Part shown: in pieces, positions 24,498 to 48,354 of the stretch
How the letters are laid out: each line of letters opens with the position of its first letter
How positions within the stretch are numbered: the stretch's first letter is position 1
Source: Octopus sinensis
Taxonomy: Eukaryota
Reading direction: 5' to 3'
NCBI RefSeq assembly: GCF_006345805.1
Contig: NC_043003.1
Span: 91,140,001-91,204,000 of the forward strand
DNA length: 64,000 bases
Program-made: the position numbers and the translations under genes
Notes under the pieces: generated by a model
Told to the model about the DNA's origin: nothing
Databases searched by the model: none
What the model saw: the letters and a program-made list of their open reading frames with translations, nothing else

Positions 24498-24731
24498 TAT
24501 CTATACAATATGTTACATTACTCGGTAGTCAAGATAAAACTCTGAGTTTCAGATGCCGAAGTGGAAATCCACAACACCATCTCTTCGGTTATCTGGCTAT
24601 TTGAAAACGTTATATATAACGTTTTCAAATAGCCAGATAACCGAAGAGATGGTGTTGTGGATTTCCACTTCGGCATCTGAAACTCAGAGTTTTATCTTGA
24701 CTACCGAGTAATGTAACATATTGTATAGATA
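24498..24731. repeat. perfect palindrome, 117-bp arms, no spacer, embedded in (TA)n
   Basis: Centre AAAACGTTATA|TATAACGTTTT; arms complementary throughout; right side continues as a tail to ~24797. Confidence 0.95.
24635..24697 (+). ncRNA. minimal type I hammerhead-like motif (mirror copy 24532-24594 on minus)
   Basis: AGATAA-CCGAAGA-GATG..CATC-T-GAAA-CTC.A.GAG-TT-TTATCT. Confidence 0.6.
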
Positions 24732-26669
24732 AATTTCCTCTATTTACATAATATTGAGGTCTCTTTCTTTCTTTTGTTATCTTACCGTTTTATCAATATA
24801 TAAATATATATATATATATAGATATATATATATATATATATATATATATATATATATATATATATATATATATATATAATATAATATATATATATAAATA
24901 TATATTATATATATATAATATATATATATATATATATATATAAATATATATATATATATATATAAATATATATATATATATACATATATATATAATATAT
25001 ATAATATATAAATATATATATATAATATATATATATAAATATATATATATATATATATAAATATATATATATATATAAATATATATATATATAATATATA
25101 TATATATATATATATCTATATATATATATATATATACATCGAATGATTATGTAGGTCCAGAATAAAATTTATCTATACGCAAAAAAATGGTTTAGAACCC
25201 TTAGCGGTTGGGTAAGGTGGGATTTCAGGTGATAATAAAAAGTGAATGCTTTTGTTTGGTAACTGATTTTAATTTTTTATCGATCTCGGAGGAAACAAAA
25301 CACAAAATCAACCTCGGCATAAAAGACTACAAACAGCTACAGGATCAAATATTTCATTAGTAAAAAAGGTAAATTTTGGAAACAGTGGGAGGGAGGAGGC
25401 AAAATGAGCTGTTTTTACTGCGTTCTTGACTTTGAGACAAAATATAACCTATTTTTCCACAAATGTTAACTACCTTACACAAACTATATCAGCTTAGCAA
25501 ATGATCTTTCATAAATGCATTAAAAGTATTATAACTGATCACTATTTCAGAAAATTATCGCCATTCTCTCTGAGCATATAAAAGGTAACCTTGGTTGGGG
25601 CAAAATGAGTTAGACAAGATAAAGTAAATTTGCCACTCAATTTGCCAGAAAACAAACTCATAGACATCAATATCTATCCCTAGACATCAGAAATGCAAAA
25701 ATAATAATAATAATACCTAGGTCAAATGAAAGAGGATCAGGGAAAATGGCACATAGTATGAAATTAACGAAACTCGACTAAATAAAAAAAAAAATCAACA
25801 TAAAATATTATCTATAGCTTCTTCATGATCTGCTGGAGTGTCCTCCATGCAGTTAAAGAGAAGAAATTATTGAAATGAGACATTACTCATTTTACCATAT
25901 TTTAGACATTTTTTTTGAAACTAGAAAATTATCAAAATAACGAAAAATAAGAAGTTACTCATTTTGCCCCACCCCTACCCACTTCTTTATTTAAACAGTT
26001 GAAGAACAATTTAGGTATGTAACTTCAAATGGTGCAAGTTATTTCGAAGTTAGACCCGGAAAATATTCACACATCCGCAAGAAATTTATAAATATAGTTA
26101 AATTATTATTTTTAGATTCGTTTATTTATTTATTTATTTATTTTTGTGCAGATGAGAAAAATTTGGAAAAATCTCAGCACAAATTTCGTTTTGTACAGGG
26201 AAAATAAGGGGTGAAAAGAATTGTAATGATAATCGTTGTCATTGGGACGTGGGGAGCGACGTTCCAAAATCATGTATTTTCATGGAGTTCAATTTTTTTT
26301 TTTTAAGAGTTTCCCCATTGAAGTGCATAGTACTTAGAAAGATAGAAAAATTGGGTTTTCCCCATGTGTATAAATAGTAAAACAGCATAGATAATGAGAG
26401 TGGGAGAAAGAGTTGCATAGAAGGAAGAAAGAAAAAGAAAACAAGCAAAAGAGAGGGAGAGAGTGGGATGGAAACGGAAGAGAGAAAAAGAAAACGTGCA
26501 AAAGAGAGAAGGAAGAAGAGAGAAATAGGAAGAGAGCGTGGGAGAGGAGAGGCAGAGTAAATGTGTTGCGTGAGAGTAGGCGTTTCTCCGTGAGAGTGTG
26601 TGTGTCAGAAGGAGACAGAGAGAGAGAAAGAAAGAGAGAGAGAGAGCGCGTGGAGGAATCTTTTTTTTT

Positions 26670-27412
26670 TCCTACTCTAAGCACAAGGCTCGGAATTTTG
26701 GGGGCGGGAGGCCAGTCGATTAGATCGAACAGTACGCAACTGGTACTTCATTTTTCGTCCCCGAAAGGCAAAGTCGACCTCGGTGGAATTTGAATTCAGA
26801 ACGCTAAGCATGCTAACGTTTCTTATTTCTTTATTGCCCACAAGGGGCTAAACATAGAGGGGACAATCAAGGACAGATAAAGGGATTAAGTCGATTACCT
26901 CGACCCAGTGCGTAACTGGTATTTGATTTATCGACCCGAAAGGATGAAAGGCAAAGTCGACCTCGGAGGAATTTGGCATCTTTTCGGTTTGAACGGCAGT
27001 CTTTTCTAGCGGTGTCATATGAAATTGTCACCCATAATTATGACCCTAGTATTGATCTATTGCATTTCAATCTGTTTTAGGGTTAGGGGTGGGGGAGGGT
27101 ATCTTTTTTCTTCACAAATGTAAATAAACCTAATCTGTTTCTTAAACGAGGGACATATTCATACGGCACAGAATGTTTTCACCTCAATAGACGCCATTGA
27201 TTGGTGAAATTGCAGAAATTGAAGAAAAAAGAACAACAAATATCTTACAAACCATAGAATTTTCTCAATAAAGCCAAGAGAAAATATATTTTATAAACAC
27301 ATTCCACCAGTATACGAAGTGTTTAGTTACGTGGAGATTATTTTTAAAGACTGCCGTTCAAACCGAAAAGATCCGGAATTTGTACTCAGAACGTAATGGC
27401 AGACGAAATACC
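26670..27412 (-). mobile_element. nested tRNA-derived SINE fragments (interrupted by MITE and LINE)
   Basis: Same core as 32554-32780 (GAGTTCAAATTCCGCCGAGGTCGACTTTGCC on minus). Confidence 0.8.
26976..27374. mobile_element. MITE with ~25-bp TIRs, 8-bp TSD and internal TTAGGG-like motif
   Basis: GCATCTTTTCGGTTTGAACGGCAGT..ACTGCCGTTCAAACCGAAAAGATCC; TSD GGAATTTG at 26968-26975 and 27375-27382. Confidence 0.9.
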
Positions 27413-47742: not shown

Positions 47743-47776
47743 GATATATATATATATATATATATATATATATATA

Positions 47777-48217
47777 TGAAAAAACAAGTCAAAAATAGAA
47801 AATGCTAAGATGATTTTATAGTGAATCTTTCAGTACCGGTTTCGGTCATTTTGAGACCTTTTCAACTGTAACGATTAAATAATTAAATTTAGAAAAATTA
47901 GAAGAAAAGTTTTTTTAAAAGAATATTTCTGTAGTTGTGTTCAGATATAAGTAGCATTCTGCCTTTCTCTGACTCCCTTGTTTGCACTTGTGTCTCGAAC
48001 ACACAAGTGCAAACAAGGGAGTCAGAGAAAGGCAGAATGCTACTTATATCTGAACACAACTACAGAAATATTCTTTTAAAAAAACTTGTCTTCTAATTTT
48101 TCTAAATTTAATTATTTAATCGTTACAGTTGAAAAGGTCTCAAAATGACCGAAACCGGTACTGAAAGATTCACTATAAAATCATCTTAGCATTTTCTATT
48201 TTTGACTTGTTTTTTCA
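47777..48217. repeat. near-perfect palindrome, 217-bp arms, 7-nt loop, embedded in (TA)n
   Basis: Loop CTCGAAC 47994-48000; one mismatch seen; short tail to ~48251. Confidence 0.95.
48126..48163 (+). ncRNA. minimal hammerhead, U3-A8 variant (mirror copy 47831-47868 on minus)
   Basis: CAG-TTGAAAA-GGTC.TCAAAAT.GACC-GAAA-CCGG-TA-CTG. Confidence 0.65.
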
Positions 48218-48354
48218 TATATATCAACTCGTGTGTTCCTTTCCACCCTTATACATATATATATATATATATATATATATATATATATATATATATATAT
48301 ATATTATATATATATATATATATATATATATACATATATTCATATACACAAATA

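Follow-up and report, generated by a model that had tools for sequence, protein, structure and literature searches.

Three long, nearly perfect palindromes lie in (TA)n tracts within a 64,000-nucleotide stretch of the Octopus sinensis genome (NCBI RefSeq assembly GCF_006345805.1, contig NC_043003.1, positions 91,140,001 to 91,204,000 of the forward strand). This whole stretch is called the window below, and positions are counted within it. We propose, with a probability of roughly 0.6, that these palindromes, here named P1, P2 and P3, are heavily 5'-truncated 3' ends of Penelope-like elements (PLEs), placed head to head in (TA)n, and that they arose by target-primed reverse transcription from both ends of the target, followed by a template switch. 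Two regularities of the PLE families behind the arms would be explained by priming from two ends: partners are oriented head to head only, and as a rule exactly one arm of a pair carries an additional 3' tail.

Palindromes and the element families behind their arms

A sequence-only reading that preceded our analysis had pointed out three TA-flanked long palindromes with centres of 0-11 nt and an unpaired tail on one side, a description confirmed by an inverted-repeat scan and by the sequence. The two P1 arms, 117 nt each, meet without any spacer and are identical (centre 0 nt, 0/117 mismatches). P2 is composed of two 226-nt arms (38440-38665 and 38677-38902) around a centre of 11 nt, with 3 mismatches in 225 compared positions; in P3, 224-nt arms (47770-47993 and 48001-48224) enclose a centre of 7 nt and differ at 1 of 217 compared positions. 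The extents returned by the scan were 24495-24614/24615-24734 for P1 (120 nt, 99%, gap of 0 nt), 38397-38665/38677-38945 for P2 (269 nt including TA, 98%, 11 nt) and the same two 224-nt arms for P3 (100%, 7 nt). The 11-nt "loop" of P2 and the 7-nt "loop" of P3 are surplus bases of whichever copy is the longer one. Each palindrome is bordered on both sides by (TA)n of 16-29 units, and each has its unpaired tail on the right-hand side (Table 1).

The palindromes had been considered unrelated. This is true at the nucleotide level, where the best cross-match between arms has E = 0.17, but not at the level of origin: all three are 3' ends of PLEs. Every arm is repeated elsewhere in the genome (2.7 Gb in 13,516 contigs were searched) at 94-100% identity. 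First-look candidates numbered 2,349 for the P2 arm and 972 for the P3 arm. The P1 arm had 8 matches, which is a lower bound, and the endonuclease domain of its family gave 19,275 first-look candidates against 7 for the 117-nt arm; low DNA counts are not copy numbers, because the DNA search skips very common words.

The P1 arm is the end of a 3' untranslated region (UTR). A full-length element of its family was found at locus L070 (L numbers denote fetched loci). It is ~2.85 kb long and has the structure pLTR-ORF-pLTR, that is, 270-nt direct pseudo-long terminal repeats (pLTRs) around one open reading frame (ORF) of 717 amino acids, in which reverse transcriptase (RT; YKDD) is followed by a C-terminal GIY-YIG domain (IIYEATV...YVGLTEG). 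The ORF further contains the motifs RWK (RMRWKAF), DKT (FSDKTKN), CxCX5C (CSCRNKELC) and CxxC, its GIY-YIG core lacks the two cysteines (no Cys between IIY and YVG), and its match to Pfam GIY-YIG, at E 0.0044, stays below the cut-off. Section 11 of PMC8557442 gives this set of motifs for the Hydra clade. Judged by its motifs, the P1 family, with a single-ORF element shorter than 3 kb, is a Hydra-clade PLE.

The P3 arm corresponds to the terminal 224-258 nt of an element of 4.0 kb at L033 (positions 1118-5160 of this locus serve as the P3 reference). Its ORF of 780 amino acids matches RVT_1 at E 3.6e-8 and, read by eye, shows DKG (EADKGSAV), a CX4CxxC linker (CGRPNCGIC) and a GIY-YIG core with two cysteines (LIYSLTCSGCQEQYIGQT); the Pfam GIY-YIG match (E 0.0068) is again below the cut-off. 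The nearest Atlas clusters contain HTH_animal, DUF8422, GIY-YIG and RVT_1. Features of Neptune/Nematis-type PLEs, as given in the relevant part of PMC8557442, match those of the L033 element, and the P3 family is, at motif level, a Neptune-type (Neptune/Nematis) PLE. Full-length copies encoding RT and GIY-YIG are thus at hand for two of the three families, P1 and P3.

The third family is of another kind. P2 is a non-coding unit of ~470 nt (reference: L011 1332-1828), which occurs singly, as a head-to-tail partial tandem or as a head-to-head pair, with an optional tail. The last 20 nt of the unit repeat its first 20, and head-to-tail copies, present at 10 of 35 loci (L011, L015, L020, L072, L075, L078, L083, L089, L094 and L095), overlap by exactly those 20 nt. 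The "long tail" of this family is therefore a run-on into the next unit, as expected of a tandem or circular template. The unit has the appearance of a retrozyme-type, non-autonomous derivative of PLEs; no autonomous partner of P2 was found.

The head-to-head arrangement is recurrent. Among scored matches, the P3 arm gave 9 head-to-head and 0 tail-to-tail neighbours, with tandem arrangement not seen; the P2 arm gave 12, 0 and 1 tandem, and the P1-type endonuclease 19, 0 and 1 tandem (150 matches scored; counted from the table of matches). When 10 kb inward of every P3 match was taken, 17 of 36 sampled P3 insertions had a head-to-head partner, the remaining 19 being single 5'-truncated copies; the proportion was 17/35 in the P2 family. 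Together with the 19 P1-type pairs, these counts bear out the earlier claim of a recurrent class of PLE-derived, TA-sited, head-to-head insertions. Single copies have (TA)n on both sides and an A/T overlap of 1-3 nt at the 5' junction (for example L006, L007, L038 and L044). Arms are not of the same length at every locus. No inner junction is shared among the five short P3 palindromes (that of the window and L064-L067), which hence arose separately. In many P3 pairs the inner ends are separated by hundreds to thousands of nt, two pairs (L033, L034) include a full-length arm, and there are older pairs whose arms are only 81-91% alike (for example 87% and 81%).

The tail follows a simple rule. 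Exactly one arm is tailed in 15 of the 17 scorable P3 pairs, two pairs being tailed on both arms and one unscorable; no P3 pair was scored as tail-less on both arms. Single P3 copies are tailed in 3 cases out of 19 and tail-less in 16, and under independence the excess of one-tailed pairs has p = 2e-7. In the P2 family, whose tail is usually ~90 nt long (the 11 nt in the window is a short variant), one tail was found in 14 of 15 clear pairs; the exception is the pair in the window, and two more were too complex to score. All five P1-family pairs (5/5) have one tail. Tail-only pieces exist as well, in the P2 family (L081, L083; inverted) and in the window at 47021-47089. The latter is a solo P1-family tail on the minus strand, ~68 nt long, 94% identical to L002 10-90 and accompanied by TA-type repeats on both sides.

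Arm lengths are coupled. Inner ends lie no more than 19 nt apart (4-19 nt) in 7 of 17 P3 pairs, two of them with arms of ~1 kb, whereas single copies lead one to expect ~12% (p = 0.003; 5e-5 when partners are permuted). The 5' ends of the P3 family (L033-L067) cluster at reference positions 3758-3796 and 2947-3098, in singles and pairs alike, and no TA-rich motif is evident at these two clusters; the first of them is inflated, as the sample needed at least 217 nt of 3' end. Truncation hot spots of this sort were considered as the cause of near-equal arms and explain only part of the excess.

Hammerhead motifs

It had been suggested that each palindrome holds a minimal hammerhead ribozyme (HHR) reading outward from the centre on both strands. 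As far as the presence of a motif goes, this holds for two of the three, namely P3, with a putative hammerhead of the U3-A8 type, and P2, with a hammerhead-type motif that has G17; it does not hold for P1, in which no such motif is present. The P3 motif and its mirror copy are of minimal type I, with a U3-A8 core and a palindromic CCGG helix III (UUGAAAA, 4-bp helix II, GAAA, CCGG, UA, helix I with 5/6 paired). A strict hammerhead descriptor matched three times in the 64-kb window, against 0.1 matches expected from Markov shuffles, and two of the three are the P3 pair. Against Rfam Hammerhead_HH9 the P3 motif scores 22.9 bits (E 0.0025), the gathering score being 52.

At the family level, P2 has a type I motif composed of CUGAAGA, a long helix II, GAAA, a palindromic UUGGACCAA helix III, UA, A17 and a helix I with 6/6 paired. 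Rfam gave no hammerhead match on P2, and the motif is known from the descriptor only. Position 17 is G in both P2 arms of the window and in L014. In hammerheads this position must be A, C or U (the H17 rule). Since G17 breaks the rule, the P2 copies of the window and that of L014 are predicted to be inactive. In the P1 arm no hammerhead was detected by Rfam (E<=10), by the descriptor or by a scan of both strands allowing one core mismatch, nor in the full-length P1-family element (L070) by Rfam (E<=10), the descriptor or a one-mismatch scan. By eye, a full-length copy of this family shows a helix II, GAAA and a palindromic CUCAGAG, but is without a CUGANGA box.

The P2 and P3 motifs read outward because they are located in the sense 3' UTR. 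They are also present in single copies, and are therefore not a property of the palindromes. A special link between hammerheads and palindromes, as the sequence-only reading had it, was not borne out: the motif belongs to the 3' UTR of two families, single copies included. The hammerhead motifs are probably passengers of these 3' UTRs and have no shown part in palindrome formation.

Cervera and de la Pena described dual minimal HHRs on opposite strands, separated by 100-700 bp. The motifs of P2 and P3 resemble published minimal HHRs of PLEs in being of type I, in the long helix II, the short or palindromic helix III, the U3-A8 variant and the pairing on opposite strands, and the G17 of the window P2 copies sets these apart from the published examples. 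According to the corresponding part of PMC8557442, canonical HHRs occur in the Hydra clade; P1 differs from this report in having no hammerhead motif.

Further hammerhead motifs were seen near P3 and at other loci. A short element at 47193-47745 ends at the (TA)n that hosts P3 and contains a direct repeat of ~75 nt (47240-47316 and 47672-47742) together with an inverted piece. At 47424-47483 there is a hammerhead motif with canonical core (CUGAUGA ... GAAACCGGUAC), whose helix III is the same as that of the P3 motif. Many minimal hammerhead motifs also occur at other fetched loci (for example L036 259-291, L039 7800-7830 and 8161-8191, L053 5022-6252), with palindromic helices III CUCGAG, CAUG, CUGCAG and CAAUUG and a second U3-A8 family among them.

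Origin of the palindromes

In the mechanism proposed here, both cut strands of the TA target would prime reverse transcription of the element RNA, and a template switch would connect the inner ends of the two short complementary DNAs (cDNAs), yielding a head-to-head pair. One arm may start at an internal, TA-like start site of the RNA and the other at a distal site beyond the tail. Both arms could possibly be templated by the same RNA molecule, and a nearly perfect palindrome would be formed when, on a short or broken template, both cDNAs end at almost the same position. In vitro, both strands of the target are cut and extended by a purified PLE protein, that of PAc, whose two RT start sites flank the tail (PMC11167929). 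A more specific version, possible but doubtful at present, has the two (TA)n 3' ends left by a single staggered break annealing to one PLE RNA at the internal and the distal site, so that two cDNAs share one template. If true, it would explain the single tail, the coupled arms, the tail-only inverted pieces and the perfect palindromes made on short RNAs, and it would be the self-complementary TA repeat that enables the reaction.

The main competitor is snap-back self-priming: the 3' end of one target-primed cDNA would fold over and prime synthesis back towards the target, which makes the first arm the template of the second. Palindromes found at inverted junctions had led to the proposal of self-priming in PLEs (PMC3846280; Arkhipova et al. 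2013), and the earlier suggestion of self-priming or template switching by the PLE reverse transcriptase is plausible and follows a published hypothesis. The tiny centres (in the window 0, 11 and 7 nt; among P3 pairs, seven with 4-19 nt) and the coupled arm lengths are what such folding would produce. Under plain snap-back, nevertheless, either both arms should be tailed or both tail-less, and exactly one tail was seen in 15/17, 14/15 and 5/5 pairs; tail-less singles are the majority in P3 (16/19), yet no P3 pair is tail-less on both arms. Inner ends separated by hundreds to thousands of nt, as in many pairs, also speak against it. Regular exit of the returning strand at a TA-like motif between arm and tail would be needed to save the model, and we regard snap-back as unlikely.

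Without any reverse transcription, fold-back repair or replication template switching at fragile (TA)n cruciforms could add an inverted duplicate to a pre-existing single PLE stub; long (TA)n is self-complementary, and single stubs of equal length do reside inside (TA)n (L006, L007, L038, L044 and others). Such events would take the flanking target into the inversion as well and would leave neither arm with an added tail; the orientation bias and the tail rule are common to three families, and pairs with one full-length arm (L033, L034) are not stub duplications, which makes this origin very improbable. No more credit is due to an assembly artefact, that is, fold-back chimeric long reads or a mis-join. 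Identical P1 arms, P3 arms with 1 difference in 217 and the troubles that PLE structures are known to cause in assemblies (noted in a passage of PMC8557442) would fit it, and the Logan contigs of four DNA runs over 37800-49000 are short, broken at repeats and too short to bridge the palindromes either way. The same architecture is nevertheless found at dozens of loci with differing junctions and arm lengths, arms have diverged (3 mismatches in the window P2, 81-91% likeness in other pairs), and a chimeric read would not give a one-sided tail and exact (TA)n junctions. Foldback or miniature inverted-repeat transposable element (MITE)-type DNA transposons that target TA, with arms acting as terminal inverted repeats, would account for the palindromic shape and TA flanks, and the window does contain other MITE-like palindromes. 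These, however, lie outside TA tracts. Arm length in our pairs depends on the locus, as fixed terminal inverted repeats would not allow, single 5'-truncated copies are common, there is an extra tail at one end, and the full-length relatives encode RT and GIY-YIG, not a transposase; we consider this the least credible of the alternatives.

Several observations weigh against two-ended priming with a template switch. The P2 pair of the window has the long tail on neither arm and breaks the tail rule. No consistent relationship between arm length and tail was found when the longer arm was tried as the tailed one (8/14 in P3, 7/13 in P2). Centres of 0-11 nt are equally expected from cDNA snap-back. 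The experiments with PAc revealed no difference in RT start sites between top and bottom strand (PMC11167929); given this result, we only infer start sites that are strand-specific or share a template. As to the data, the sampled loci are best-scoring matches to the arm queries, not a random sample of the genome, and for 8 of the 17 P3 partners the search extended only inward from the match.

Window features and comparison with known systems

The features of the three palindromes are collected in Table 1.

Table 1. Positions of the PLE-derived palindromes, their tails, hammerhead motifs and (TA)n flanks in the window
Feature	Position	Strand	Remark
(TA)n target, P1 left flank	24436..24497	.	(TA)28 = 24436-24491
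P1 left arm: inverted 117-nt 3'-UTR end of Hydra-clade PLE (assigned by motifs), without tail	24498..24614	-	same piece single in (TA)n at L006, L007
P1 right arm: 117-nt 3'-UTR end of this PLE in sense orientation	24615..24731	+	0 mismatches to left arm
P1 tail, 65 nt, PLE 3' extension, on one side only	24732..24796	+	likewise on one arm in L001, L002, L068, L071
(TA)29 target, P2 left flank	38383..38439	.	
P2 left copy: inverted, ~470-nt non-coding PLE-type unit, to about reference position 158; includes 11-nt loop	38440..38676	-	
P2 mirror copy of hammerhead-type motif	38569..38633	-	descriptor
P2 right copy: sense, reference 170 to ~401	38677..38902	+	
P2 hammerhead-type motif: CUGAAGA, long helix II, GAAA, palindromic helix III, G17 at 38765	38709..38773	+	descriptor; no Rfam match
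P2 short unpaired tail, 11 nt; ~90-nt long tail of the family on neither arm	38903..38913	+	
(TA)16 target, P2 right flank	38914..38945	.	
(TA)n target, P3 left flank	47745..47769	.	
P3 left copy: inverted 3' end of Neptune-type PLE (assigned by motifs), reference 3793-4016, without tail	47770..47993	-	
P3 mirror copy of hammerhead motif	47826..47873	-	
P3 right copy: sense, reference 3786-4016; includes 7-nt loop	47994..48224	+	
P3 minimal hammerhead motif, U3-A8 variant: UUGAAAA, GGUC/GACC, GAAA, CCGG, UA; predicted cut after 48160	48121..48168	+	
P3 tail, 27 nt, reference 4017-4043	48225..48251	+	
(TA)n target, P3 right flank	48252..48332	.	

At gathering thresholds, Rfam reported a single family in the whole 64-kb window: mir-9, on both strands of P1 (24573-24656), with 60.8 against 58.6 bits. 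A mir-9 precursor was rejected, as 10 other miRNA families match the same perfect hairpin at E<0.01. The mature part is identical to the consensus at 19 of 23 positions. We read the match as a hairpin artefact and the sequence as PLE 3' UTR. It is a curious fact that a very abundant PLE 3' UTR carries a near-miR-9 sequence, with the complement on its sense strand.

Other PLE remains are present in the window. At 46165-47016, on the minus strand, there is a 5'-truncated PLE of a further Neptune-type family; the encoded product shares 54% identity with residues 497-776 of the P3-family RT-endonuclease. An older head-to-head PLE remnant occupies 8161-8717, its minus strand corresponding to residues 724-774 and its plus strand to residues 551-675 of a P3-like protein, and adjoins TA tracts at 8824-9143. 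Four additional palindromes or inverted pairs (32248-32373, 33729-34108, 60619-60864 and the arms 21376-21541 and 22206-22371) have arms 88-96% alike; they lie outside TA tracts and gave no match to the hammerhead descriptor. A common short end motif is visible by eye in 33729-34108 and in the 21376/22206 arms, which look like DNA-transposon MITEs.

The sequence-only reading identified this architecture rightly, yet claimed too much for its novelty and its hammerheads. Inverted 5'-truncated copies, a one-sided tail, the (TA)n bias and pairs of minimal HHRs on opposite strands have all been published: the architecture is an already known one, found now in three families of one genome. According to the passages on insertion structure in PMC8557442 (Craig et al. 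2021), PLE insertions often have an adjacent inverted 5'-truncated copy, a one-sided tail of 30-40 bp, a (TA)n bias and a pLTR. With the complex PLE insertions described there and in the corresponding part of PMC3846280, our three families share 5' truncation, the head-to-head copy, the tail at one end, (TA)n and partial tandems. The window cases differ from them in being extreme: both copies are near-equal stubs and the whole insertion is a nearly perfect palindrome. The tails measure 65, 11 and 27 nt here (~90 nt in most P2 copies) against 30-40 in those passages, which contain no counts for a one-tail rule or for a coupling of arm lengths.

The Anolis Poseidon PLE studied in vitro (PMC11167929; Frangieh et al. 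2024) likewise uses an AT-rich target, and there both strands are cleaved and extended and two start sites bracket the tail. Its start sites are the same on both strands and not homologous to the target, whereas the putative sites in the octopus families are TA-like and indistinguishable from (TA)n, and pairs as a rule have one tail. Like the non-LTR retrozymes, characterized as non-autonomous PLE derivatives in the pertinent sections of bioRxiv 10.64898/2026.07.22.740005, P2 is a short non-coding unit bearing a hammerhead motif, and its copies lie scattered or form partial head-to-tail tandems that overlap by 20 nt. Unlike these retrozymes, it is mostly dispersed in (TA)n and often head to head. 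Palindromes are not mentioned in bioRxiv 10.64898/2026.07.22.740005, where the one "inverted" belongs to the title of a cited MITE paper.

A further parallel is provided by two-ended priming of LINE-1 elements. During LINE-1 twin priming, reverse transcription is started from either end of a staggered break, which gives rise to inverted segments, the 5' part of one copy being inverted without duplication. Priming from two ends would be common to both systems, whereas in the octopus pairs both arms copy the same 3' end.

For this genome, nearly perfect palindromes in TA repeats should be annotated as PLE insertions and not as hairpin genes, miRNA precursors or assembly errors. If transcribed, such palindromes might yield long dsRNA and feed siRNA or ADAR pathways, as the sequence-only reading had suggested. 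For PLEs, the one-tail counts, the coupled arms and the exclusively head-to-head orientation add numbers to the question of how these elements make inverted structures, and they yield a testable two-primer model.

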